DNA of 61,462 nt, the filler included, from Sphacelaria rigidula (taxonomy: Eukaryota): assembly GCA_964200075.2 (NCBI GenBank). It is 10 parts of 10 records of this genome, joined end to end, with 100 filler letters (N's around TTAATTAATTAA, not from the genome) between each part and the next. Parts side by side here need not be neighbours in the genome. Positions count along the whole stretch, not along the records: positions 1 to 6,057 come from CAXNAA020022528.1; 9 more parts are not named here. One strand, 5' to 3'. Under the pieces are notes generated by a model, which was given only the letters and a program-made list of their open reading frames with translations, was not told the origin of the DNA and did not search any database. The position numbers and the translations under genes are program-made. The first letter of the stretch is position 1, and each line of letters opens with the position of its first letter. Below are positions 110 through 61,462 of the stretch, one piece after another.

Positions 110-894
110 CGATTGCGTCAGGGATGTTGCATAAAGTATTTCGGTTTTGTTTGCTTCAAGTAGAGGGTGACCATGTGCACAGTCGCGGCTGCTTCGAAGC
201 GCTCATGCAGATTGCGCTTTGAAATCTAATTTTTTCACGGACAGTATTTCCACGCCAAGATCTCCTCACAGCACAGGAAAGCTCGGACACTGTTGGCTAC
301 GGTGGCATTCGTCTATGGCGGCTTGCACCCTATGCGAAACATCGCAAAAACCAGTACATGCTTCTCGCTGTTGAAGGTTCACAATTTCGAACCTTGGGCG
401 CCAGGGTGGGTCTTCCGGTGGACCGACATTTTTTCTGAAATAATAGTAAAGCCCAGATACCCCACGCTGGCGGTCGAAGGATGAACCGGCCTGCGGAGAT
501 TTGATTATTCTTATCTCAACTCTAGCCGATGAAAGCTAACTGAGTGTTCATCATCAATGATACACGATTACTTGTACACCACCTCAACAATGATGATGTG
601 TAATATGTAGTGGAAGGAGTTGCTCCTCGAGTGGTCACAGATGAATGCTATCGATACAACAGACTTACCCCCTTGGCGGTCAAAGGGCCGTCATATTTCG
701 AAATGGGGTTCGCCTCTACTGTGCTGCAGCACGGGAGTTGTTAGGAGATAAGGTTTCGTAGCTCACTCAGTGAAAGCTCCGTAGAATGATGCTTTGTGTG
801 TGATTGAGGAACATGTGCAACAATTTCTTGGCATAGCATTTGAAATTGACTGTAATGTCTCCGTTATTTCGTCCTAACTTGGGTGGGGGGGGGG

Positions 895-1309
895 CGTACT
901 TAGATGTTGCTTGCCTTAGTCGTTCGATCATGGATCACGCATCCCTTTCGAGATGGAGCACCGTTCCTACTCCTAATAGAGACACCTCCAACATTCTCGC
1001 GCTCATTACGTTTTTTCCGTAGCTCATTACGTTTCTTCCATGGATTACACAAAAACCTTTGACATATCTTGTCTCCGTCCTGTTTCGCCGTCTCGGGCCA
1101 TCATCCATCTCCTAATATAGCCATCGTCTTTTCCCTACGGTCTAATGCATCAAACGATTTCATGCCACCTTTATTCACGTCCCGCATGTCCCCCTCTAGC
1201 ACGTTCCGTTCCTCCTTGTATAGCTCACATTCTGCCACTATATGACTTCTGCTCTCTATTCCTTCGCCACAGAGAGGCAGTTTTGTCCATCTACTTCCTC
1301 ATCCTTTCG
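895..1309 (-). mobile_element. 5'-truncated LINE (family A) 3' end with target-site duplication
   Basis: Homologous to 18008-18371 and 18551-18960; flanked by CTAACTTGG plus a G-run at 874-894 and 1310-1328. Confidence 0.85.
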
Positions 1310-1772
1310 CTAACTTGGAGGGGGGGGGTGCCAACTCCCTGGTTTACTCTCATCTACGGACCGTTTTACACGGTGCGTTGTTCCGGATTGTCTTGTCCGC
1401 AAGCGGCATCTGCAATATTTGTCCATAGTCCTAGCGCAGCGTGTCTGCTCACTTGGCTTGGCAGCAATCAATGCCAACCTTTTGGGACAACCCTCAGAAA
1501 CGTTGAGGGACATTTCTTCCACAGGTTATGAGCCTCAAGGCCTCAACATTTCGCATGGCGCAAACGAAGCAGGGACTGGGAGGAGCCTCGGAAGCTGAAG
1601 CAACAGCATAGAATCGTCGAGAGATCTCTGGGAACAACATGAGTTGAGTCACACTAAGGGCAGCATCAGCACCATTTGCGTCGGCTATCGAAAGCCGCGA
1701 ACTTCATCGCAGGCCGTAGCGATGCCATGCTGGCACGTGGAGGAAGAGACGCACCTGCCCCATTCTTTATGG

Positions 1773-3585: not shown

Positions 3586-4664
3586 CTGCTGGTTCCTGCA
3601 GTGGGCTTATTTCCATGGTACAGAACAAGGGTTTGTCGAGAGAAAAAAATTAGGACATGGAGCCCCCCCCCTCCCGGAGGATAGTTTTTCGAAAAAAATC
3701 ATGATTTTTTGACGTTTTTATTTATCATGGATTTTTCTTGTGATTCTTTTGATTTTTTGTTGTTGTTGTTGAAATTGTTGAAAGACATTGATCAACAAAC
3801 ATTGACGAAAACCGAAAAGTCTGGTGGGCTTTGCCAGGTTCGTATATTTGCTTCTGCTCCTTGCCCGCTCTGTCCCGATGACCTCAGGTGCCGTCAACGC
3901 TCACACACAAATGTGTACAAAACACGAGCGCACGGTAGCGACAGCCTGCAGCCAAAGTAGCAACATTATCTCACACCTCGCCAAATTTGCCCGGAGTACT
4001 AGTAATAGCGGTAGGTAGTCGAGGCACACAACACGAAACATGACCCCATAAATATGATCATGGTAGGTGATGAGCTTGGAGGGGCGGTGTGTCCGTCATC
4101 TCAGTTGTCTCCATGCCAAGAATCTCTGTACACGGCAGCTGACAGCATCCGCCAACGCCTCGGCAATAAACTAGGGGACAGCAGGCTGGGTGTCCCCTCC
4201 CCCTCCCGCTCAAAAACTCGAATTTTCGATCTTAGGACCTACGTGTCCCGAAACATATTTTTGACAAACCCTTGTACAGAACGGTATTTTTTCGATGTCA
4301 CACCACTACCATGTCGTTTCTTGAATCTGACGTCAACACGCCGGAGATACGGCAGGTCATGCCTCAACCCCTGAACCAGGGTTGGAGGGACACCATCAGC
4401 GCAAAGCCACGGAGTGATCCTTCTTCTGTGCAATTCTTCTGCTTGTTTCTCCTTGCTGGCCAGTTATCGCATGAACCTCATGTGGTTCATTCGAGGTATC
4501 GTTTGTCGAAGTCGACGCCAACACGCCGGAGATAGAACACGTCTCAACCCCTTCGCCAGGGTTAGAGGGACACCAACAGGAAAAATGCAGTAAATTATAT
4601 CCTCAACTTTTCGTGCGCATTCTTTTTTCTCGCGTTTTTTTGCCGTGATCGGGTAAACCTTGTT

Positions 4665-4960
4665 AACGATGTTTTCGTGAGAGTGAGAGTAGAGGATACG
4701 ATTGAGAATGACAAGCGGTCAATTAGTGAATTAATCATTTCAGTTCCGAAATGCTCCCGAACAACGCTCAATATGCTTTCTGTCGTAGCTTGCCACTGAG
4801 GCCCTCGATATCCCTGACTGGGATATCGACGTGTAGCTGTAAGCACACGCTAGTGATGGAGGCAAAGAGAACCACACACGGAATACAAAATTGGCTGAGT
4901 TAAAGCGAGGGATCAAAGCCACTCTCAATTAGCGCTCTACTCTCAATCTCACGAATACTT
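4665..4960. mobile_element. ~300-bp MITE, family B copy 1
   Basis: TIRs TTCGTGAGA(G/T)TGAGAGTAGAG...CTCTACTCTCAATCTCACGAA; inverted homolog at 5130-5429. Confidence 0.8.
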
Positions 4961-5129
4961 TGTTTCTTGTAGGCTTTGGCTTCGCATGCTCACCTAAACA
5001 CGGGATTTTTCAAATCGGGGATGGATCCTTTATTGGGGACGAAAACCCGACGATTAAAATCCTCGTATCCACACCAAATTCCCAACGTATGCTTCCATTT
5101 CTTCACTTGCTGGTGGCTATTGACAACTA

Positions 5130-5429
5130 AGAATCTTTTCGTGAGATTGAGAGTAGAGCTCGGATTGAGAGTGGCTTTGATCATTCGCTTCAACTTGGCT
5201 GATCTTTCGTTCTCTGTGTGCTCTTCTTTGCCTTCATCATCGCTCTGTGCTTACAGCTTTACGTGGATATCCTTATCAGGGATACCAAGCGCCTTAGTGG
5301 CAAGTTACTATAGAAAGAATATCGGGCCTCGTGGAGGGGCATTTCGGAACTGAAACGATTCATTCACTCAGTGATCGTTTTTCACTCTCAATCGTATCCC
5401 TGTACTCTCAATCTCACGAGAACATCGTT
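5130..5429. mobile_element. ~300-bp MITE, family B copy 2, flanked by TA
   Basis: Same TIRs; interrupts a repeat whose uninterrupted copy is at 24170-24340. Confidence 0.85.
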
Positions 5430-5997
5430 TACTGCACGTCGTACAAATTTGGATTTCGATAGCCGAAATGTCGGGGTCCTACGTTGAAAACCAATTTTGG
5501 CGTCGGTTTATAAATCAGGATTAGGTTAATTTAGGTTTCATGGTCTTGAAATAAGCTGTTCATCGACAAGCTCAAGGCGAGCTTAACATTTCTGACAAGC
5601 TTACAATGTGCTCGAAACAAGCATAAGTTGCGATAAAATTTGTACACGCCTCCTCCGGCCATTGCAGCAGCTGTCTGAAAGTGCCCTATGGCCTATGGCA
5701 TGACTCGTAACCCGTCAGCAGACAGGCTTCGATACTCCAAACTGTCATGGTTGCGGGTCTGATCCGGAAACGTTCAATGATCATAGAAAAGTTCAATTTT
5801 TCAATAAAAAACAATTTTTTGAAGCTCGAATATCCAGGTTGTCGCCCTCTCCTGGTGCTACAAGGCTAGCCTTGTGAGGGGACACTCCCACGACGCCACA
5901 ACAGGGGCGCGAAGTAGGTGCATGAAGTGGGGCTTAAAACAAGGTGGCGGAGCTTTAAAAAAAAAGAAAAGAGCATAATTAAAAAACAATGCGCATA

Positions 5998-6057
5998 ACA
6001 GTGTTTTCGTGAGATTGAGAGAAGATGATACAATTGAGAGTGAAAAGCGGTCAATCA
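5998..6057. mobile_element. MITE family B copy 3, truncated by contig end
   Basis: ACAGTGTTTTCGTGAGATTGAGAG preceded by TA; matches the start of copy 1. Confidence 0.7.
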
Positions 6058-7263: not shown

Positions 7264-9873
7264 TCATCTGTCGGACGCCCCTCCTAGCTCCAACTTCACG
7301 CTTGAGCCCTCCAACGCCTCTGCCGATTCCACGCCAACAAACCCGCCGAGAGACCCACATACAAATGCCGGCGAACCATAGAGCCGTCCCGCACTCACAC
7401 CACAGCTGCTGCTGCTGGAGCTACTTTCACCACCTGCGTTGCTCCAACCCCTCAAAGGGCCAGCATGCTTGCTATACTGTCCCATTCCAGCGCCACCGTG
7501 TGCAGGAGAAGGAGCTGCCACCTCGACCTTCATTCCTGCCCCTACCCTCAGCACGGAAGACACCTCACGAGTAGCCCCCGAGGGTATCTGGCCCGGAAGC
7601 AACAGTGGTGTTACACCACTACGTATGGTAACAGGGTACACGCCACGTCGAGGATCAACAACGTCGCTTCTGCCAGAACTCAGGCATGGTGCGCGCTTGC
7701 GTTTTGTTCCTCGCACGCCAGCGAAGCTTCCTCCACCACCGTCGGTTGTGCTACGGGTGTAGGTGGCCTCCTCAGTGCTGAGGCCTTCCATGTCGCACAC
7801 TGTCGCTGCGTTATGCGCAATGGGATGCTGTCGGCATGACATTGGCTCATAGAGGTTATCGTTCTTGACAATATCCATTCTCAAGCGTCCCTCGTTGCTA
7901 GACTTGTGGCTCATCACATCAAGCATTCCCGCCCTGGCATGCTGAGAGCAGAACTCCACCTCCTTGCTTCCCGCCACACGACACGACGACCTCTTCAAGC
8001 ACTCCTCGTCGCCGCATTGTTCTTCGACCACGTCCACCATTCCCGCCCTGGTGCGCGGAGAGCAGACCTTGACCTTCTTGCTTCCCGCTAAACCATCCGA
8101 CGGATTCTGGGAGCAGTCGTCATCGCCGCATTTATTTATGACCACATCCACAATTCCCGCCCTTGCACGCTGACAGCAGAACTCCGCCGTGTGGACCCCG
8201 GCTACCCGAGGCGATGGCTGCTTGAGACAGCCCTTGTCGCCGCACCTCTCCTTCATCAGATTCACCATTCCTTCCCTGGCATTCTGAGAGCAGAAGTCCG
8301 CCTCATAGCCCGGAACATCATACGATGGGCATTTCGAGCAGCCCTCGTCGCTACACTCTTTTTTCATCATGTCCACCGTCCCCGCCTTGGCATGCTGATG
8401 GCAGAACTCCGCTTTTTCGCCTCCCACTACACCATACGACGGCTTCTTCGAAAAGATCTCGTGGCCGCATTCTTTGTTCACCACATCCACCATCCCCGCC
8501 TTGGCATGCCTGGAGCGGAGCTTGGCCTTGACGCCGGGTACACCGTACGATGGCCATTTCGAGCAGCTCCCTTGGCTGCGCTTCTTGGTCACCACATTCA
8601 CCATTCCTGCCTTAGCGTGCTTGGAGCAAAACTCCGCCTTTTTGCTTCCCGCTGCACCATACGACGGCTGCTTCGAGCAGCCCTCGTCGCCGCACATCTG
8701 GTGCACTACATCCACCATCCCCGCTTTGGCATGCCTGGAGCAGAGCTTGGCTCTGAAGCCGGGTACACCGTACGATGGCCATTTCGGGCAGCCCTCTTGG
8801 CCGCACTTCTTGGTCACCACATTCACCATTCCTGCCTTCGCATGCTTTGAGCAGAACTCCGCCTTCTTGCTTCCCGCTACACCATACGACCGCCTTTTGA
8901 AGCAGCCCTCGTCGCCGCACGCCCTGCTCATCATATTCACCATCCCCGCTGTGGCATGCTCCAAGCAAAACTCCGTTTTCTTGCTTCCTGCCACACCACA
9001 CGACGCCGCCTTGGAGCAGCCATCATCGCCGCATCTCTTTGTCACCACATCCACCATTACCGCCCTCGCATGCTTCGAGCAGAACTCCGCCTTCTTGCTT
9101 CCCGCTACACCATACGACGGCCTCTTGAAGCAGCCCTCGTCGCCGCACGTCCTCCTCACCACATTCACCATTTCCGCGGTGGCATGCTTGGAGCAGAACT
9201 CGGCCTTCTTGCTTCCGGCTACACCATACGACGGCTTCTTGAAGCAGCCCTCGTCGCCGCACGTCCTCTTCACCACATCCACCATTCCCACCTTGGCATG
9301 CTGGGAGCAGAACTCCGCCTTCTTGCTTCCCGCTACACCATACGACGGCCCTTTCAAGCAGCCCTCGTCGCCGCACGTCCTCCTCACCACATCGACCATT
9401 CCCGGCCTGGCATGCCTTGAGCAGAACTCCGCCTTCTTACTTCCCGCTACACCATACGACGACCTTCTGGAGCAGCCCTCGTCGCCGCACGTCCTGTTCA
9501 CCACATCCACCATTCCCGGCCTGGAATGCTTTGAGCAGAACTCCACCTTCTTGCTCCCCGCTACACCATACAACGGCGCCTTTGAGCAGCCCTCGTCGCC
9601 GCATTTCCTCCTCACCACATTCACCATTCCCGCCCTGACATGCTTCAAGCAGAATTCCGCCTTCTTGCTCCCCGCTACACCGTACGACGGCTTCTTGGAG
9701 CAGCCCTCGTCGCCGCACGTCCTGTTCACCACATTCATCATTCCCGCCCTGGCATGCTTCGAGCAAAACTCCGCCGTGTAGCCCGGTACACCATACGATG
9801 GCCACTTCGAGCAGCCCTCGTTTATGCACTCTCTTTTTGATACGGTGGTCATCAGCTCGGTCGCGTGGTGTTT
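7264..9873 (-). CDS. EsV-1-7 cysteine-rich repeat protein (probable large terminal exon; first in-frame ATG at 9852)
   Basis: 884-codon stop-free frame with 17 repeats of consensus CGDEGCxKxPSYGVAGSKKAEFCSKHAxAGMVDVVxxx, matching the EsV-1-7 motif. A pyrimidine-rich CAG acceptor ends at 9874 with GCTGAC upstream; the C-terminal ~200 aa are low complexity and contain KRKR. Confidence 0.92.
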   Translation of the reverse strand, partial: KHHATELMTTVSKRECINEGCSKWPSYGVPGYTAEFCSKHARAGMMNVVNRTCGDEGCSKKPSYGVAGSKKAEFCLKHVRAGMVNVVRRKCGDEGCSKAPLYGVAGSKKVEFCSKHSRPGMVDVVNRTCGDEGCSRRSSYGVAGSKKAEFCSRHARPGMVDVVRRTCGDEGCLKGPSYGVAGSKKAEFCSQHAKVGMVDVVKRTCGDEGCFKKPSYGVAGSKKAEFCSKHATAEMVNVVRRTCGDEGCFKRPSYGVAGSKKAEFCSKHARAVMVDVVTKRCGDDGCSKAASCGVAGSKKTEFCLEHATAGMVNMMSRACGDEGCFKRRSYGVAGSKKAEFCSKHAKAGMVNVVTKKCGQEGCPKWPSYGVPGFRAKLCSRHAKAGMVDVVHQMCGDEGCSKQPSYGAAGSKKAEFCSKHAKAGMVNVVTKKRSQGSCSKWPSYGVPGVKAKLRSRHAKAGMVDVVNKECGHEIFSKKPSYGVVGGEKAEFCHQHAKAGTVDMMKKECSDEGCSKCPSYDVPGYEADFCSQNAREGMVNLMKERCGDKGCLKQPSPRVAGVHTAEFCCQRARAGIVDVVINKCGDDDCSQNPSDGLAGSKKVKVCSPRTRAGMVDVVEEQCGDEECLKRSSCRVAGSKEVEFCSQHARAGMLDVMSHKSSNEGRLRMDIVKNDNLYEPMSCRQHPIAHNAATVCDMEGLSTEEATYTRSTTDGGGGSFAGVRGTKRKRAPCLSSGRSDVVDPRRGVYPVTIRSGVTPLLLPGQIPSGATREVSSVLRVGAGMKVEVAAPSPAHGGAGMGQYSKHAGPLRGWSNAGGESSSSSSSCGVSAGRLYGSPAFVCGSLGGFVGVESAEALEGSSVKLELGGASDR
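7903..9828 (-). repeat. coding tandem array of 17 units of 111/114 bp
   Basis: Recurrent GAGCAGAACTCCGCCTTCTTGCTTCCCGCTACACCATACGAC and CAGCCCTCGTCGCCGCAC at 111-114 bp period. Confidence 0.95.
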
Positions 9874-11450
9874 CTGATGAGGAGTAACCGTTCGCGGTAG
9901 GGACAATCGGCAAAACACAGGAGGTTTCTCGTGTCAGCTTCAGGAGAAAGCGAGTTGATAAAAAACACTATCGTCGCACATTAATGGGAAGAACAGGAGC
10001 TACCTGAGCCTACTGAAATGACACTTTACATAAACGGATCGCCACGACTACAACTTCAGTGCCCAATGTAATTCAAGCGCATCGGACTTCCTCACCAATA
10101 CGGCTGTATGAATCTGAAGTACATATAGCATTGAAAGGATACAGGAGGTGAATGAAAGCAGACAAGCTTGAACGTAAAATACCAAGCCGTGATTCACCGG
10201 ACATGATACATGCAGTATTACACAATTCAAGGCTTGTAGAACACCTGCCAGCATTTTGGGAAGTTGCCCTACACCGGCAGAATACCTGACAACGTTGGAG
10301 GTGATCATATACACCAACAAAGTTAGGGGAAATCGTCCTGAACTCGAAGATGCCTGACCATCTCCCGAGCTACTGGCCTGGTTCGATCCTGTTCTATTTC
10401 ACGGCTTCAAGATATAAATAGAAGAGGGATGTCTTTCGTTCTCAACAGCGGTACAAGCGACCGTCGAAAGCAAGTTATATCAATTTCGGTACCGACATTG
10501 GTATGTGCACACGCGCAAAAAAGTATACATATCTGCCGAATCTCATTACACGCGCACATGTGCTCCTATGCTTGGATATCTTCATCTCTCTTGTCATATC
10601 GGGTACCGTGGAAACCAACAGTTATGTATTGTTCTAGTTTTCACGTCAATCACACGTGATTCCATACGTCGGGTTATCTGATATTTGCTTTAGTCACTTC
10701 CACGTCATAATTTTCGGCTCGTATCACATCTGTATGGTGTGCATTGTAGTACACCGCGTGTTGTCGCCAGGGTCAGAGTGTCAATGTCAGGGAAGGGCCG
10801 GAAGTTGAGTAGAGCGAGAGACTGTCGGGAGAAACAACAAGACTTGCAGTATAATACATTGCACATCTGTTGGGTGAGTATGTTACGTCTGTACATGATT
10901 GGTGCAAACATTCTAGATGGCGCCGACATGACGATAATCGTCACCGTAAAGGCCCTTCCCTTTACAACCCTTGTGGAAACCGGCAGACGCCTGACAAGGG
11001 TGAAATATCTCAAACGCACCAATATCTGACTCAACGTTCGTTAATTGTCTGTCAGACTACCAGAATATCACCTTCGTTTGACGTACGTTTTAGCCTGATC
11101 GGGTGTCATCCAGCCTGTGTCGAACACACATCCTACGGTAAACATGTACTCCCTCTGATCGCGAATATCAGGGATGTAGGGACAACGCGCGGTCTAACTC
11201 GGGCCCATGGTAGGGTTTTCGCGAACCGTTGTTTTTGCCGTTTCTCCACGTTTATTCAGAACAACTAGGACAGGTTTTCTCAATTCTTCTCCCGAAAAGG
11301 GTTCCCCTACCCCAGCAGAAGCAGCTCGATATCACCACTCCTTCTCATCGTGTGATGAGGCATGCCTGCTGCTGGGAGTGAAGGTTAATCGCAACAAATT
11401 TCAACAACTTTGAGAAAGACGAAGTGATTCGGTACCTCCTTGCTGGCAGC

Positions 11451-11494
11451 TTAGGCTTAGGCTTAGGGTTAGGGTTGGGGTTGGGGTTAAGCTT
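11451..11494 (+). repeat. short degenerate interstitial TTAGGG-like tract
   Basis: TTAGGCTTAGGCTTAGGGTTAGGGTTGGGGTTGGGG. Confidence 0.6.
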
Positions 11495-11551
11495 AGAGTG
11501 AGGCAACCGGGGAATGATAGACAATCATCCCCCCCCCCCCTCCCCCCACGT

Positions 11552-12214
11552 TCACACAGTACAGATGGCAGCAGCTAAGAAGATACTTGGATGCTCGAAA
11601 ACGACGAGTAATACAGCACTGAGAGTAGAGTTGGGAATGTACTCACTTGAAACAGAGACATGAGGAAATTGAGATGGCAATACGGCGTAAAGAACATGCA
11701 GATAAATAGATTGCCAGCTACAGTTGATAAGGCTATATGGAAGAAAAGCACGAAATGGCGTGCTATAAGGTGGGATAGAGATGTCGAGAAAGTGTGGAAG
11801 GAGATGGGAGGGAACCAACACGAGATACTGTTCATACATGAAGACGCGGGGTACGAGGCAAAAGTGGGAGATCTAATCGAAATAAGGGGAAACGGTGCGC
11901 CCAGACGCAAAGTAGACGAGAAAGAACACCTGGAGATATACGGGTGGTTGAGAGAGGGGATAGGGATGACAGCATATTTGCATGGTCCCATGGACGCTGC
12001 AAAGAATATGAAACTGCGATTTCGGGTGGGGGACCTGGATCTGCTAGAAAGAAGAAAGAGATATACCAGTCGTCAAAGGTAGGAGGAGGTAAATGGGCAG
12101 AACTGCCTCTGTGGCGAAGGAATAGAGAGTAGAAGTCATATAGTGGCAGAATGTGAACTATGCAAGGAGGAACGAGACGTGCTAGAGGGGGAAATGCGGG
12201 ACGTGAACGAAGGT
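11552..12214 (+). mobile_element. LINE family A, ORF2 C-terminal fragment (frameshifted, with stop)
   Basis: TVQMAAAKKILGCSKTTSNTALRVELG (post-RT region) through CLCGEGIESRSHIVAEC (CCHC-like finger); homologous to 18551-19387; preceded by a C-run at 11529-11547. Confidence 0.85.
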
Positions 12215-12314: not shown

Positions 12315-12370
12315 GTTACTTGCCTTAGTCGTTTGACGATTGACCACGCATCCCGTTCGAGATGGAGTAC
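12315..12370 (-). mobile_element. LINE family A, very short 3' fragment
   Basis: Matches 906-960; followed by G-rich 12371-12392. Confidence 0.7.
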
Positions 12371-12672
12371 GGGGGAGCAGGGGGGGAAGGGGATTATTTG
12401 TGTACTCGACCCTGCGGATGGAGTGCGCCATCGCTTGGAGGTGGAAAAAGCCTCTTCTCAAACATCAGTATTAATATTTTTTCAAACTATGACGTGTGCC
12501 ATTACGCAACGCACACAACTGTCACCGGTTCTCATGTATCTTGAAAGTCGATTCACGGAGCGTGGCGGCGTAAGCCTCCGAAACTCTTGTATGTATGTAT
12601 ATAGGCACATATTTCGGCTACATCGGGAAAACATCGTCAGATTCTACTGATACACACCGCTAACCATCACAC

Positions 12673-16959: not shown

Positions 16960-17541
16960 ATACTTTCCACACCACTACTATTCCACTGGTAGTGTGACCG
17001 TTTCATCAACAAACGCATGCTCTCTCTCTTTTCATGGTTGTCGTGATGCCGGAGATCAACTTTTCCCCTTACTACACTTGCAGCGTTTTCACGCACACGA
17101 ACACGTAGCAAACAAAAATGACTCAAATCGACAAAGAACACACACAAGAACAAAAACAAATCCCACACCGACGTACCCGAGGGTACTCCAACACCCCCTG
17201 ATAATTGGAAAAAAAATCAAAAAGCCCAAGCCACAAGTTTTTTTTTTTTTTTTTTATTTCTATATTTAACATAATTTTTTTTTTTTATTATTTTTTTTTT
17301 TTTTTCTTGTTTTCTAATTTGCACATCTCCNNNNNNNNNNACCCCACACAAACACACCCAAAAAAAAAACAACACCCACAAAAAAAAAAAAAAAAAAAAA
17401 AAAAGCCCAAGCCACAAGTTTTTTTTTTTTTCATTTCGACCACTCTAGGACATGAGGTCTTATTTTCATTTTTTTTTATATGTAGCCCCGGATGAAGTAA
17501 GGAAAAGGACCGGTCCGTGGCACCGGTTTTTGGGGGTTCAC

Positions 17542-17632: not shown

Positions 17633-18007
17633 CTAATGCTGAGATGTATGGCATGGTCTATTGCAATCTGCAGGAGCTGCCAGTTTGAAAACGGGGAGCA
17701 CAAAAATTGACATCGCGATTGCGCGCCGTCAGAAAACATCATACTTCGTGCGCGCGGGGTGTACTCGCGATTTTGCATGCCATAGTCATCAGACCATTGA
17801 CCTCCCATTCCTACAAAGACGGGGCGGAGCACGCCGGGTCGTCACGGACCAGGCCCGCAGTCAATCACCAAGGGCGAAGCACGGTCATTTGCTCAGCGAG
17901 TCGCATGAAGAGCAAGCTATATCCTACTGACATTGTTCGGCCCGAACCGTGCTTATTTTCTTGCATCTGCACGCGAAGGGAGGGGGCGGCAGGGGGGGGG
18001 GGGGGGG

Positions 18008-18371
18008 TCGCCATTTTTTTGTTCGCGGGGTTGTTTGCCCTTTGACCACGCATCCCTTTCGAGACAGAACACTGTTCGTACTCCTAACAGAGACACCTCC
18101 AACATTCCGGCGTTTATCACGTTCCTTCCACACATTGGACAAAAACCTTTTACATATCTTATCCCCGTCCTGTTTCGCCGTCTGTGGCCACCATCTATCT
18201 TCTAGTATAGCCATCGTTTTCTCGCGAGTGTCTAATGCATCGAACGATATCATGCCAAAATTGTTCACGTCCCGAATTTCCCCCTCCAGCACGTCCCGTT
18301 CCTCCTTGTATAGTTCACATTCTGCCGCTATATGACTTCTGATCTCTATTGCGTTGCCACAGAGGCAGTTC
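18008..18371 (-). mobile_element. LINE family A 3' fragment
   Basis: LEGEIRDVN..WWPQTAKQDGDKICKRFLSNVWKER; 3' end abuts a G-run at 17992-18007. Confidence 0.85.
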
Positions 18372-18471: not shown

Positions 18472-18542
18472 GTTCCGACTCCCAATAGAGACACCTCCAA
18501 CATTCCGGCGCTCATTACGTTTCCCCCATGCATTACACAAAA
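18472..18542 (-). mobile_element. LINE family A short second copy, head-to-tail after the long copy
   Basis: Repeats 18615-18685; separated from the long copy by G8 at 18543-18550. Confidence 0.7.
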
Positions 18543-18550
18543 GGGGGGGG

Positions 18551-19387
18551 TACTCATTTGCTGCTCATTTAAGTTATTTGACCATTGACCACGCATCCCT
18601 TGCGACGGAGCACCGTTCCTACTCCTAATAGAGACACCTCCAACATTTGGCCGCTCATAAGGTTTCTTCCATAAATTACAGAGAAACCCTCCACATATCT
18701 TATCCCTTTCCTGATCTGCCGTCTGTGACCACCATCCATCTCCTAGTATAGCCATCGTTTTCCCCCTACTGTCTAGTGTATCAAATGGTATCATGTCACC
18801 TTCGTTCACGTCCCGCATTTCTCCCTCTAGCACGTCCCAATCCTCCTCGTATATCTCACATTCTGCAATTCTATGACTTCCGCTCCCTGTTACTTTGCCA
18901 CAGGGGCAATTCTGTGCATCTACCTTCTCCTCCACACGACTACTGGTAAATCTCTTTCTCCTTCCTGGCAGGTCCAGGTCACCCACCTGAGATCGCAATT
19001 TCAAAATTTTCGCCGCGTCCATGGGGCCATGAAAACATGTTTTCATCCCTATTCCCTCTCTCAACCCCCCGTATATCTTCAGGTGTTTTTCCCAGTCTAC
19101 TTTGCGTCTGAGCGCTCCTTTTCCCCATATTTTTATCACGTCTCTTACTTTTGTCTTGTACCCCACGCCTTCACCTATGAAAAACATTTCATATTGGTTT
19201 CCTCCTATCTCCTTCCATTCTTTCTCGACTTCTTCATCCCACTCTATCCCAGCCCGCTCTTTCGTACGTTTCTTCCATACAGCCCCATCAACTACGGCTG
19301 GCAATCTCTTTCTCTGCATGTTTTTTAAGCTATATTGCTATCGCAGTTTTTTCGTGTATCTGTTAGTTTTAAGTGAGCATGCCACAT
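18551..19387 (-). mobile_element. LINE family A ORF2 C-terminus and 3' end
   Basis: Long open frame including CPCGKVTGSGSHRIAEC; homologous to 11660-12214. Confidence 0.88.
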
Positions 19388-20071
19388 GGGGTTGAGAATA
19401 GCTGTTTCCTCGTCACCTAAAACACATTTTTTATGAACACGTGGAGGTTGGAAATTTCCATCGTAAATAGTTCCGGAGAACCCCTACGAAGCATGCCGAG
19501 TACTGAAAACACCTGAAATAGGGTACCCAGTGATATATGTCCTCCATAGTGTGAGATCAATTTATTTTATTTGCGCGTAACTATTTTTAACTGGACTACT
19601 ACGTTTTATGTGTTAGACCTAGATTAATGTTTTACTACGTGGAACCGGTTTACCCAGCTGTCTAGTGCGTGCAGAGTCAGTACGTATGATATGCTTCATG
19701 TCTTCGCTGGATAAGACGGCAAGAGAGTGAGCGTGCCATCGCTCTTGACTGAACACAGCCTACTGCATGCTGCTGATGTCTGCTTACTGCCCCACACAAA
19801 CACTACATCGAGTGTGAAGATAGGCTGGGAACACAAGAGCGGTCAGGCAGGCGGCACAGACCACGAGCAAGGTAAAAAGCACATATTTTGTGCCCATATT
19901 ATCTGTGTGGTTGAATGGTCGAAAGCTAAACGGGGAACACGGCGAGCCCGCGAGGTAGTTAGTCTATCTGTAGGGCAAACACTGACATTTTGACCGATCA
20001 TAACTCTCAAAATGGTCACTCCGCTCCTCTCGGGCATCGTTCCTGAATCGCAAATTTCTGTGGGAAACTTC

Positions 20072-28837: not shown

Positions 28838-29399
28838 GACACCTTCCCAACCACCTCTGCCCACCATAGTCGAGACCTCGACTGTGCCTCCTCCACCCCG
28901 TGATGGTACCACCTCCGGTACCACACCATCCGACACCCTCCACAACGTAGGAATAGAGGTGAACGTTCCGTTTGAGAATATACTGACCACCTCCTCTGAC
29001 CTTGATCCAAATGACGCGTCGTGTCCATCCCACAGCGATTCGATCCCCTGCGTTTTGGACAACCCCTCCGACAGTGTATTCAAGGAATTGACCCCTTTTC
29101 TCACGCCGATTGGGCCCGGGAACAGCAAGCTGAACCTGCTTGTAGAGCAGCTATACATCCTCCTTTTCAGAAACTGAGTTCCGTTTACCAGTAGGGCCCC
29201 ACCGAACCCCCACACAGGATGAACTTACTGAATTATCGCGTAAAGGCATGTTTTTTACGGATGATGATGGCGTTGTTCTCTTAATTCACCGGCCCACCAC
29301 GAAACCTCCTGGAGGGAAACCTACAAGTAGTCACGTCCGTTTGTTGGGTGATGCCCCCGTACGTATTTATGTTCCGATGCTTCTGCGTTCATGAGCTCT

Positions 29400-30453
29400 C
29401 CATGAATGCCACTCACAAGCATCCACACATCTGGGCGTCGCTAGGACCTCCCAGATGCTTCAGCGCTTTTTTTGGTGGATTTGTATGGACCAATGTGTGC
29501 GTTGGTGGGTTCGGCGGTGTCTTCTTTGCCAAGCACGCAAAACTTCGCGTCAAACACTTAAATGGCCGGTAATCTCTATGCCCCTCCCCAATGGGCCTAA
29601 TGAAATAGTTTCATGGGATTACTTTGACCCCCTGCCCCTCACTGATAGTGGTAACAAGTACATTTTGTTGTTTACGGATCGGTTCAGTCGACATGCTGTG
29701 ATGACTGCTGTTGCTGAGGCCAACTATAGTGCAGAAGGGACTGCCAACGTCCTTGTGTACACATACATCCCTCAGTGGGGTGTCCCCAAACATTTGTTAT
29801 CCGATAACGGCCCACATTTTGCCGGAATACTTTCTGCCGCGATCAGTAATCTCCTGGGTGCCCATCATTTTTTTACTAGTTCATACCATCCATCCACTAA
29901 CGGTGGGACCGGACGAGTTAATCACACGATGGCGCAAATGCTTGCCACAGTGACCAATGAGCGACAAACAGACTGGGGCCTGCACTTACGCCTTGTCCAA
30001 ATGAACTACAACAACTCCGTCAATGCCGCCACAGGCTTGGCTCCCAATGAAGTTCATATTGGTCATATGCCTCGGTTGCCATTGATAGTGTTCGACAGGA
30101 AACCCCCTGGTGGTCATCAGAGTTTGGATCGGGATTTTGTGGAGTATCATATATCTGTTAGTAATCGTCTTCGTCTTGCATATGAGGTGGTACGGGACCA
30201 GAACTTGATCAACGCAACAAAGGTAGCTAAGGCAAACAGCGTGTTGGATGATGCAGTGAACAACCGTCTGGTGTGGAAAGTAGGTGAATGGGCATCGGTG
30301 TATAACGATGTGAGAACTGTAAACCAAGGTGCAAGCTCTGCTAAGTCGTCGTCGGATGAGGTGTTGAAGTCGAAGCTTTGCTTGAATTGGACTGGTCCTT
30401 GGAAGGTTCGACAGTTGGGCCCTGTGATACCGCACCTGACGATAGGCCAGTAG
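29400..30453 (+). pseudogene. gypsy integrase
   Basis: HHCC finger (CHSQASTHLG..CLLCQARK), core SWDY..DRFSR..SDNGPHF..YHPSTNG, GPY/F-like WTGPWKV. Confidence 0.92.
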
Positions 30454-35609: not shown

Positions 35610-36460
35610 TACACCGCCATCCCTCCCTTTCCCCTACTCCAAAACGCCATATAACTCATACAGGCACCGATCCCGTATTAAACCCCACACAAAATGACGC
35701 GGCGTCGGAGGGAGGGTAACCCCCCTGGTTTCGTTGGGAAAGAGGGGGGGGCGGGGGGTGATCACGATTCCCGTACCCCCCTCAAACGTAGGTGTAGAAA
35801 TACAAACGCAGATATAATGAAATAGATAAATGAAATACGCATGATGAAAGAAAACAAAAAAAGTGAAAAGAGAAAAATCACTGGAACAAGAGAAATAATG
35901 TAGAAGTGATACACTTAAAAAGGGGAAATGAATAAACGAGTAAGAGCGAAGGAAATAGAAACAGAAAAAAAGCCGAGAAAGGAAAAAAAACAAGAGTAAT
36001 AAAATCGAATAACAAAATGACCGAATAAAATACAAGTACAGGGAAGAAAAGAAGTAAAACATGATTGAAAAATAAATCACAACTCAAGACAAAAAAATGG
36101 TGAAAGAAAAAAGATCAAGGTTCACAGTGATACGCCCTTTGGAGGTTGGTGAAGTTCACCATGGTATCCAGTCATCACAATAATGCACGCGGCAAACTTG
36201 TTTGGGTGGTAACCAGCGAGTCATACTACGACAGGGGGGGGGGGGGATTTGGGCCGTTTTCTCCCACAAAAGATCACTTAATCGCCGTTGAAAGCAGTCA
36301 ACAGTTGTTCGAACGCGCTTGCTCCCGATAAACAACGCTCATTCATACTGCTTTACACAGCTTTAACCCAAAAACAAGTGCACCGCGAGTGTTTCAGGTC
36401 GTTTTACGCATCAATGCTCACATTGTTTTCGCAGAATCGAGAACTCCCCCCCTCCCCTCT

Positions 36461-36582
36461 CCGGCGAGAACCCGGCGTGCTCCGTCCCGGCTTTGTAGGG
36501 GCGGACCCCCGACGCGGTTGGCGTCGGTCGGCGGTGACGTTATTAAACACGCCACTCACTCCGTAAGCGAGGCAACCAGGCT
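36461..36582 (+). mobile_element. short dispersed element ending ACCAGGCTA
   Basis: CCGGCGAGAACCCGGCGTGCTCCGTCCCGGCTTTGTAGGGGCGG is identical at 49109-49152, where it starts TAGCCTGGT; related pieces at 17775-17840 and 55408-55465. Confidence 0.7.
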
Positions 36583-49065: not shown

Positions 49066-49252
49066 TGCAAAGAGATATTTCCCATATTTCCCCCCCCTTT
49101 AGCCTGGTCCGGCGAGAACCCGGCGTGCTCCGTCCCGGCTTTGTAGGGGCGGNNNNNNNNNNNNNNNNNNNNNNNNNNNNNNNNNNNNNNNNNNNNTTAA
49201 TTAATTAANNNNNNNNNNNNNNNNNNNNNNNNNNNNNNNNNNNNNNNNNNNN

Positions 49253-53557: not shown

Positions 53558-54520
53558 AACATTTCCCAATTTTTTGGTCGGCCATGGCCTAGCAAGGTCC
53601 CACACAAAGATTCAAGGAACAAGTACCAAACCTAGGCCGGTAAACGGCCTGGAAAATGTTATCCCGAATTTCGCCCGGCCCGGTTTCTGACTTGCCCCGT
53701 CTCACCTCAATTTTGCGAGTTAGACTTCAAAGTAAGAAATCGAGGAAGAATAGGGCAAGCTAAACTCTGTCGCTCGGAACGCAAATGTTGTTTTTTGTTT
53801 TTCGTGAGTTAACGGTGCTTTCCTGATATCTATATACACTGATTATTGCCCTTAACTCACGAAAAAAAAAACTTTGCGTCCCGAGCGAAATCGTTCAAGC
53901 ATGCCCTATTCTTCGTCCCTACCGAATGGTGAAGTCTTGACTCGCAAAATCGAGGTGAGTCGGGGTGTGCAAACAACAAATTCGCGTCTTGGCCGGCCCA
54001 GCCTGGAGTATGTTGCGATATACGTAGGGCAATAGACGACAGAGAAAATCTATCCGTAGGCAGTGGACCCTCATCCCACGGGATGTCATCATGATGATCA
54101 TACTGCATGCAGTTGTGTTGCAGGCTGGTTCACTGTGAACGCCACAAGCACACTCGTCTGGAAACTTGACCCTTCGTGAGCGTCGCCTCGGAACAGTTTC
54201 ACCGACTGACAGTCCAGAGACATCCGCGGATTTCCACAGGATGGATGAGGCGGGGCGGCTGTTCTCAGACAGGCAAAAAGCTCACGAAGTGAACCATATG
54301 TATTAAACATTTCCCACGGAAACGTTTACGAGTAAGCCACGGGCGTGGCTCGAGAGAAGTGGAGTGACCCTGCTGACCAATCATGGCTATCGGAACGGTC
54401 ACAGCGTTTCCCTATACAGATCGACTACAGATTGAGTATACGTCCCATCGAGCCCATGGGAAGCCGATAAAGAGCCAAAAAGCTTTGAAACATCTTACGA
54501 GTATACTCCTTGGACGGCGG

Positions 54521-55057
54521 TGCGGGTAGTTCATCTGGATCACGCATACACATTTCAGGTGAATATTGATGCCGATCTAGCAGGTGACCTACCCTCGCGG
54601 TCGAAGGGTCGACCCTTCGACCGCGAGGGTATGTCAGCAGCTGAATCGGCATCCATGTTCACCAGAAAAAAGTATGCGGACGCACACGTTTTTCAGGTGA
54701 ATATTGATGCCGATTTAGCAGGTGACCTACCCTCGCGGTCAAAGGGTCAACCCTTCGACCGCGAGAGTAGGTCACCAGCTGAATCGGCACAAATGGTCAC
54801 TAGAAAAAAGTATGCATGATCCAGATGGACTACCATCCTCGCGCTCCAAGGGGTAACCCGTAGACCGCGCTGCGGGCAGTCCATCTGGATCATGCACACT
54901 TTTTCAAGTGAAACTGATGATGCCGATTAAACAGATGACCTTCTCTTTTCAAGTGAGATTGGACAGCGAGGTTATCTCACCTGCTGAATCGGCATCAATT
55001 GCACTTCAAAGTAGTATATAAGATCCAGATGGACTACCCGCATCGAGGTCTAAGGGT
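54521..55057. repeat. tandem array of long palindromic units
   Basis: Hairpins 54543-54678 and 54680-54817, a degenerate third at 54871-55042; perfect 42-bp palindrome at 54590-54631. Confidence 0.9.
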
Positions 55058-55875
55058 TAGATCCACTTTTATGGCAAACGAGTCCCGATATTTTTGGACC
55101 CCGATTTTGAAAAAATCGGGGGGAATCAGATTCGTGAACTCAAAATCGGGGTGACCATTTTATGGCACAGACGGTACAGTATCACAGATTTGTGAAACGG
55201 TTCTGTACCCAGACGGAAATTTTTTGCATGAGTGTGGTACTGCGTTCTCGTGCATGAAGCCGAAGAGCAGGCAGGCGGTAAACGATCCTTCGAGTACAGT
55301 GTCGTACNNNNNNNNNNNNNNNNNNNNNNNNNNNNNNNNNNNNNNNNNNNNTTAATTAATTAANNNNNNNNNNNNNNNNNNNNNNNNNNNNNNNNNNNNN
55401 NNNNNNNCTCCGCCCCGGCATTGTAGGGGTGCGAGGTCAATGGTCTGATGACTATGGCATGCATGATCATGAGTACCCCCCCTCTCTACTATCCTAGCAA
55501 TACTCCCACAATTTGTAAAACCCCGCGGTATCAACAGGAAATTCTGACAAATAAGAACATTGTTTGAACGGGAAGGAGTGGAGGTCGAACGCGTTGGGTA
55601 TTCACACGAGGTTTTACAAATCGCGGGTTGATTCTTAGAAGGATGAGCGAGACCACACATCACGACCGGAGAGTGCATACCCTTTTCCTTTTCCCGACAA
55701 TATTTCGATGCTTGTGAAGGTTCCCAGGATCCATCCTCAAAAGCAGATCCATCCTCAATTTGCAAAATCCCATGTTTCAAGCGAGATCGTCGAATGCCGC
55801 AACTAGTATATCAAGTATATCCAAACTTTCTCACCTCTACTCTCCAAACCTTCTCTTCTTCCGCCGTTATGCCAG

Positions 55876-60720: not shown

Positions 60721-60753
60721 ACCGCTTGTCGGGCGGTAGGCAGACGCCAAAAA

Positions 60754-60890
60754 ACTGTATTACTCGTCGTTTTCGAGCATCCACCAAGTACTTTCTTAGC
60801 TGCTGCCATCTGTAATGTTTCCAACTTCTCCACCAAGTTCATGTTCCCTTCCCATTCTTCTCCTGCATATTCCAGCTTTGATGCAATCAC
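60754..60890 (-). mobile_element. LINE family A internal fragment (RT C-terminal region)
   Basis: KLEYAGEEWEGN..KLETLQMAAAKKVLG.CSKTTSNT overlaps the 11552 copy. Confidence 0.8.
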
Positions 60891-61462
60891 GTTGCCGATT
60901 GGACGAAGGAATGATGTGGGGTCAAGGCTTCCCGCGTCAACCGGTCGCGAGGTATTGGCCGCGGCAGATCCCGAGAGGCGACGCTGATGTGGCCTCCCCC
61001 TCAGCCTCCGTCTGCTGCAAATCCGCGTCAGACTATAAGAGTTGCGTAGGCGGTGGGAGGGTCTGGAGATATTGCGTGAGCCGTTCTCATCGGTTTTGAC
61101 TTTTCAGGTATTGGTGGCAAGTTTGGTTGCAAACAACCGTTGGCGCGGGAGGTCGGCCTGCTGCCGACGGCAGGTCCATACGGCAAGACTTGCTTATTGG
61201 TGAACGGATGTCGACCGGAGGAGCAGCCAGCTACAAGCAGCAATTGCGGCAGCAGCAGCCATCCCCCGTGCCGTTGCGGACACGTGTGCTAGAATTAAGC
61301 ACCAGTCACGGTGGGCATAAGTCCCGCCAGAGTGTGTCGGTGGCGACCTCCCGTACGGGCGTCTTGGGGTCCCCTCCCGTGCCCGATATCCAGCCTTCTG
61401 GTAACGGGTACAACCACAGCAGCTGTGCTGTGCTGGGCGACGAGAGAGACAAGCTAGGAGGC

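Follow-up and report, generated by a model that had tools for sequence, protein, structure and literature searches.

LINE retrotransposons of the human and mammalian L1 type nick their target at TTTT/AA and carry a poly(A) tail, and the pairing of that tail with the primer is established for L1 and for target-primed reverse transcription (TPRT) in general. A locus in the genome assembly of Sphacelaria rigidula (GCA_964200075.2) raises the question of whether a LINE family can follow the same principle with C/G homopolymers as target and as tail. There, a degenerate LINE fragment, copy A, is flanked by a target-site duplication (TSD) with a C run in the position in which L1 TSDs carry a run of A. 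The window, by which we mean the whole stretch of 61,462 nt that was analysed, consists of ten pieces of ~6,057 nt at a spacing of ~6,157 nt, with N44-TTAATTAATTAA-N44 linkers between them. Piece ends, and not biology, truncate several of its LINE copies (B, B', C, D' and F).

The initial annotation had read copy A, on the sense strand, as C9-TCCAAGTTAG[element]C10-ACCCAAGTTAG, and this structure is found as claimed in the sequence at 874-1328, together with a 9-mer, CTAACTTGG, whose only occurrences in the window are those at 874 and 1310. The TSD is ~19-21 nt long, its C run lies at the outer, upstream end, and the last 3 nt of the sense word TCCAAGTTAG, TAG, also match the element, which constitutes junction microhomology at the 5' end. 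Contigs of the public runs X1 and X3 bridge both junctions (120-960 and 1273-1864), so that the structure is not the artefact of one assembly; contigs of run X5 give cover across the junction at the 1273-1626 side only. Among the joints listed for contigs mapped to piece 1, none skips copy A as an empty site would. Copy A alone displays both of its ends, and a TSD starting with a C run is thus represented by n = 1 plus one-sided junctions.

Identity and coding capacity of the family

By tblastn, seven fragments of the window align to aa 1033-1360 of the protein P0003 (1360 aa) at 58-79% identity (Table 1), copy A covering aa 1245-1359 at 61% identity with several stops, and two short tails, at 17756-17825 and 55425-55482, were recovered in addition by blastn with the reference copy. 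The window copies cover only the part C-terminal to the reverse transcriptase (RT). Translation of the three longest fragments yields a protein tail with a CCHC motif, interrupted by stops in A and B, and Pfam assigned no family to the window's own 261-aa fragment. The endonuclease is seen in full-length relatives, not in these truncated copies: P0003 carries Exo_endo_phos and Exo_endo_phos_2 at aa 170-414 and RVT_1 at aa 740-989 (E = 1e-30), and P0004 (1328 aa) also carries Exo_endo_phos and RVT_1. A further contig (L011) contains an uninterrupted ORF of 1333 aa, and the 1,067 nt upstream include no second sense ORF of at least 80 aa. Among solved structures, L1 ORF2p (E = 7e-21) and R2 RTs come closest. 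Because the relatives combine endonuclease and RT, L011 has a single ORF and L1 and R2 are nearest in structure, the family is a single-ORF APE LINE, in agreement with its first description as a LINE.

Hallmarks of LINEs are also present in the copies themselves, namely one 3' end common to 11 copies, variable 5' truncation (5' ends at reference positions 1387, 1434, 1905, 1963, 2162 and 2234) and no terminal repeats. The window copies are old, 5'-truncated and non-functional, with stops in the translated A and B, and the intact relatives possess one ORF of ~1,330-1,360 aa with an APE-type endonuclease, an RT and a C-terminal CCHC motif. Putative membership in the RTE-X clade is based on the shared architecture, the trait of (C)n ends with C-rich TSDs, and 49-59% identity to the Ectocarpus proteins P0005, P0006, P0019 and P0023. 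Viral contigs scanned with a conserved 21-mer gave 0 matches.

Table 1. Positions of LINE copies, associated C runs and linkers in the window; strand refers to the sense direction of the element.
Feature	Position	Strand	Remarks
TSD copy, 3' flank of copy A	874..884	-	CTAACTTGGGT on + strand, sense ACCCAAGTTAG; match to 9-mer CTAACTTGG
G10 on + strand (sense C10)	885..894	-	Directly after copy A's last bases ..TAAGTACG; tail and/or TSD start
Copy A	895..1309	-	Degenerate, 5'-truncated LINE 3' fragment, 415 nt; ~1905-2300 of reference copy L001
TSD copy, 5' flank of copy A	1310..1319	-	CTAACTTGGA on + strand, sense TCCAAGTTAG
G9 on + strand (sense C9)	1320..1328	-	Start of upstream TSD copy; the target's C run
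C12TC6AC..	11529..11551	+	Directly upstream of copy B 5' junction
Copy B	11552..12214	+	aa 1058-1277 of P0003; cut by end of piece 2
Copy B'	12315..12371	-	Element's last ~56 nt; 3' end cut by piece start
CCCCTTC7TGCTC5 (sense)	12372-12392	-	Before copy B' 5' junction
Copy G	17756..17859	-	Tail of diverged subfamily, probably non-autonomous; last ~70-100 nt in common with LINE
C16 (sense)	17992..18007	-	After copy C 3' end, also upstream of copy G: head-to-tail
Copy C	18008..18371	-	aa 1243-1360 of P0003; cut by piece end
Copy D'	18472..18542	-	5'-truncated; 5' junction adjoins C8 after copy D; 3' part cut by piece start
C8 (sense)	18543..18550	-	After copy D 3' end
Copy D	18551..19414	-	Longest in window; aa 1088-1345 of P0003, 59% identity
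Possible copy	36446..36500	+	C7TC4TCTCC, then ~40 nt resembling G/F subfamily; family assignment tentative
Possible copy	49090..49152	+	C8TTTA, then ~50 nt like copy at 36446; cut by piece end; family assignment tentative
Copy F	55408..55482	+	G-type subfamily tail 55408-55475, then C7 55476-55482; 5' part cut by piece start
Copy H	60751..60893	-	Internal fragment, aa 1033-1079 of P0003, no 3' end; uninformative for junctions
Linker gaps	6058, 12215, 18372, 24529, 30686, 36842, 42998, 49153, 55308		Neighbouring pieces not contiguous genome

Besides these fragments, a diverged subfamily is represented by 17760-17960 (-) and 55408-55475 (+) in the window and by a second copy in contig L005 (2656-2900, -), comparison with which extends the copy G body to ~17960. 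The body of this subfamily (copies G, F and the second L005 copy) is unrelated to the autonomous LINE and is conserved between two sources. We consider it likely that the G/F subfamily is a non-autonomous partner, like RTEX-N of Ectocarpus.

C runs at the ends of the copies

Eleven independent 3' ends could be compared, five from window copies (A, C, D, F and G) and six from elsewhere, L001-L004 stemming from a metagenome scan and L005-L006 from probably algal contigs binned into bacterial MAGs. The 11 aligned copies have an exact common 3' end, ..ATGAGTACG, or in its longer form ..AAATGAGTACG. A stop codon, TGA (TAA in copy A), is located 5 nt before the end of the element (..TGA GTACG), and the 3' UTR therefore consists of GTACG. 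This boundary is followed by C10 in copy A, C16 in C, C8 in D, C7 in F and C4 in G, where the preceding bases read GAGTACA (run at 17756-17759), and by C8, C10, C11GC5, CCTC7, C10TC9 and C13 in L001-L006 in that order. An unbroken run of at least seven C's starting within 2 nt of the boundary is present at 9 of the 11 ends (p = 5e-28) and at 4/5 of those in the window (p = 6e-13), the corresponding frequency at random positions being 0.0006; the two exceptions are L004, with its interrupted run, and copy G. In three more copies (L009, L010 and the second one in L005) the 3' flank is C-rich but interrupted, and these were too decayed to be scored.

The G runs at 17992-18007 (G16) and 18543-18550 (G8), initially taken to follow further complete 3' ends of the family, do adjoin 3' ends of same-family copies. 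Beyond the C run all 11 flanks are unrelated to each other and none is A-rich; hence, the copies do not continue into a tail that is shared or A-rich, and no poly(A) follows any copy examined, as had been stated. Two of the copies, L001 and L006, are 96% identical and have different flanks and different run lengths, which identifies them as young, independent insertions. A different sample, run X2, contributes 44 contigs that match the 3' end and show, on the plus strand, a G-rich loose end before 885. A conserved RNA structure at the 3' end was not supported by RNAalifold, which returned for the last 100 nt of the 11 copies, a coding region, a weak fold with a covariation term of +1.95 and 2/22 compensated pairs.

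C runs also occur on the other side of the copies. With 5' boundaries set by local alignment to the reference copy, a run of at least seven C's lies within 25 nt upstream of six of eight 5' junctions (p = 2e-13; background 0.0045), namely those of A (C9, then TCCAAGT, then the TAG microhomology), B (C12TC6AC), B' (C4TTC7TGCTC5), D' (C8) and the copies at 36446 (C7) and 49090 (C8). Copy D (junction at ~19375-19414) and the copy in L005 have no upstream C run. Three of the six positives are weak, as D' reuses the tail of copy D and the assignments of the copies at 36446 and 49090 are tentative; when these are dropped, 3/5 junctions retain a C run (p = 9e-7). The enrichment of C runs at 5' junctions that the initial annotation had proposed thus holds in either set, and the two C-rich stretches it had named, 11529-11551 and 12372-12392, both adjoin 5' ends of copies. 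Word matching for a TSD in L001-L004 found nothing because all four copies run off their contigs on the 5' side, and in L005, where the 5' junction is defined, there was no matching TSD.

In two places a C run joins a pair of copies head to tail, C-(C16)-G and D-(C8)-D', and these tandem pairs fit re-insertion into existing C runs. Homopolymers of this kind are frequent in the window, which contains 16 G/C runs at least 8 nt long within 60.65 kb; 90 8-mer matches to runs of eight G or C compare with 1.37 expected from shuffles, a ~65-fold excess. One of these runs, a G48 homopolymer at 62-109, lies in DNA that is single-copy by contig depth and has no recognisable LINE tail beside it, and the public contigs begin at 120-130.

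A proposed route of insertion and its alternatives

We consider it probable that the family inserts by TPRT at C/G homopolymers, in the full form of the model that includes a (C)n tail on the RNA. The endonuclease would nick the G-run strand at or inside the 3' side of the run, and the exposed oligo(G) 3' end would pair with (C)n at the 3' end of the element RNA and prime cDNA synthesis. A nick of the second strand 0 to ~10 nt downstream would follow, so that the TSD would start with the C run. Reverse transcription would usually abort early, giving rise to 5' truncation, and the 5' end would be joined by microhomology. As every insertion would leave C runs at both ends, old copies would become new targets, and head-to-tail arrays could build up. 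The position of the nick, the (C)n on the RNA and the G:C priming are what we infer here; the initial proposal of a G/C analogue of L1 TPRT is supported as far as the layout of the sequence goes, and its nick, RNA tail and oligo(G) primer keep the status of inferences. As judged from the DNA, the pattern is consistent with complementarity between an RNA tail and the nicked strand of the target.

The resemblance to L1 extends to the combination of APE endonuclease and RT, a TSD starting with a homopolymer of the same kind as the tail, 5' truncation and microhomology at the junction. Unlike L1, the family uses C/G instead of A/T, has a single ORF with no ORF1 seen, and possesses a 3' UTR of only 5 nt. 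Its tail cannot stem from polyadenylation and so would be templated from the donor locus or the flank. We speculate, rather tentatively, that the endonuclease could be a true homopolymer- or structure-specific poly(dG)/poly(dC) nickase and that the RT could prime oligo(G) on templated oligo(C), with the family making its own targets and acting as a main source of the unusually frequent G/C homopolymers in these genomes; this extended proposal is possible, if on the whole doubtful.

The two runs of copy A, C9 and C10, are equally compatible with an RNA tail and with a run derived purely from the target. Their near equality is what would be expected if both belonged to the TSD, and this leads to the alternative in which the RNA ends in ..GTACG without (C)n, the endonuclease is specific for the edge of a C/G homopolymer, and the C's on the 3' side are duplicated target, with the RT starting without base pairing in the manner of stringent-type LINEs that recognise their own 3' end. 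Conservation of the last ~70-100 nt between autonomous copies and the G/F subfamily would suit such recognition by the RT, and at copy G a run of C4 was enough. The Ectocarpus curators, however, assigned (C)n to the 3' end of the element, and 3' runs reach C13-C16, and we regard a purely target-derived run as unlikely.

Still less likely, in our view, is the converse, in which the RNA would carry a (C)n tail while the endonuclease would have no real preference for C/G runs, the 5' C runs being tails of older copies hit by chance. Two of the 5' C runs do consist of an upstream copy's tail (D-D' and C-G), and we read a tail-like remnant, ..GAGTACA, upstream of B'. Yet no recognisable LINE 3' end precedes the C runs upstream of A and B, the flank beside copy A is low-copy by depth, and so frequent a landing in old tails of ~10 nt would itself need targeting. 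Moreover, many G/C runs of the window have no adjoining LINE, the G48 at 62-109 in single-copy DNA being one example, and targets therefore exist independently of the family.

Non-templated tailing, whereby the RT or a terminal transferase would add G's to nicked DNA and cDNA ends in the absence of any target C run, would account for the C runs that abut or nearly abut the 5' junction in B, D' and the copy at 49090; the C9 of copy A, however, is external to the unique portion of the TSD (C9-TCCAAGTTAG-element), a position that tailing could not produce, and this explanation is very improbable. Poly-G reads of two-colour chemistry or homopolymer mis-assembly, to which the breaking of contigs at the G48 run might point, can be set aside with near certainty, as the run is always C on the sense strand whichever strand of the window the copy occupies (A, C and D minus; F and B plus), which rules out a sequencing artefact, and as such runs recur in six contigs from other sources and in the junction-bridging contigs of X1 and X3.

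Related elements, abundance and neighbouring features

A few APE LINEs are known to target simple repeats, and a single-base G/C homopolymer as a target is rare. Waldo, Mino, Kibi, Koshi and Dong, which probably belong to clades other than that of the window family, resemble it in being APE-type and in inserting into simple repeats that match their own 3' tail repeat. Their microsatellite targets are given in a 2013 review as (ACAY)n, (AC)n, (TC)n, (TTC)n and (TAA)n, respectively (PMC3812793). The window family differs from them in its single-base unit, C, and neither (C)n nor (G)n figures in the list contained in the accessible part of that review.

The closest precedent comes from Ectocarpus. 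In supplementary file 1 of a 2025 study of its transposons, the entry for RTEX-1_Ec32 reads 'single EN-RT ORF; (C)n 3'' and that for RTEX-2_Ec32 '(C)n termini/TSD', and the TSD is given as 'C-rich' in all RTE-X entries of the portion available (PMC12477816). These elements are like the window family in the single EN-RT ORF, the (C)n 3' end, the C-rich TSD and a very high copy number. RTEX-N1 is annotated in the same file as 'can be present in tandem', with 60 bp at the 3' end in common, and the RTEX-N1/N2_Ec32 partners, tandem and sharing the last 60-100 nt, resemble the G/F subfamily. The RTEX_Ec32 elements and the window family reside in different host genomes and share only ~50-60% protein identity, and they are therefore different families. 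In the same host group and the same file, simple-repeat 3' ends are also recorded for RTE-1/2_Ec32, as (CAA)n tails, and for CRE-1_Ec32, as (CA)n tails, and the available entries note no C-rich TSD for them (PMC12477816).

The specificity was fairly called unusual, but it is not unrecorded, given the (C)n 3' ends and C-rich TSDs annotated for Ectocarpus RTE-X. The accessible main text of the Ectocarpus study is silent on the (C)n feature, and 'C-rich' occurs in it 0 times (PMC12477816). Saccharina also has RTEX-1, according to the relevant passage of PMC4421812; the RTEX passages available from PMC11203168 and PMC5753468 contain nothing on tails, and a preprint on the 3D genome of brown algae does not mention RTE-X. 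A literature search for poly(C)-ended or homopolymer-targeting LINEs, in which the spellings '(C)n' and 'poly(C)' are unsearchable, found no main-text treatment. With a supplementary entry and no main-text treatment, the trait has been recorded by curators, but not analysed, in a related genome; as far as these searches reach, G/C homopolymer targeting has previously been recorded only in these Ectocarpus RTE-X notes.

The family is extremely abundant in its source organism, as contigs of four public runs reach a summed depth of ~1e6 over 809-1414, compared with 10-55 in the flanks. RTE-X elements are likewise the most abundant transposons of Ectocarpus, with 16,418 copies making up 3.41% of the genome in Table 1 of the study as available (PMC12477816). 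Given this abundance in Ectocarpus and here, the target rule shapes where insertions fall, and some of the G/C runs in brown-algal genomes may be due to it. If their preference for G runs is a defined one, the endonuclease and RT, together with a 3' UTR of 5 nt, could provide a compact system for the study of how tail-target pairing sets LINE specificity.

Two contigs carrying this eukaryotic LINE (L005/L012 and L006/L011), one of them with the full ORF, had been binned into bacterial MAGs and are probably mis-binned algal DNA. Other features of the window were observed along the way. A degenerate telomere-like array of TTAGGC/TTAGGG/TTGGGG units is located at 11450-11495, ~35 nt upstream of the C12 of copy B, and two direct repeats of ~94 nt that contain long runs of T (T18) and of A (A25) surround an N10 gap at 17162-17436. 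Close inverted repeats occur at 2097-2509 (arms of 185 nt, 93%), 4694-5399 (277 nt, 78%) and 54504-54855 (175 nt, 81%). Over 1819-2828 and 4647-6057, contigs reach a depth that exceeds the flanks by a factor of thousands, which marks the inverted repeats as other high-copy elements, possibly foldback or MITE-like. The stretch 7264-9933, GC-rich (58%) and strongly C-skewed, holds a minus-strand ORF of 889 aa with at least 12 tandem units of 114-nt period (38 aa) at 7856-9856, and may represent a repeat protein gene. An open frame at 29395-30453 (+) encodes Integrase_H2C2 and rve domains and is the fragment of an LTR-retrotransposon integrase.
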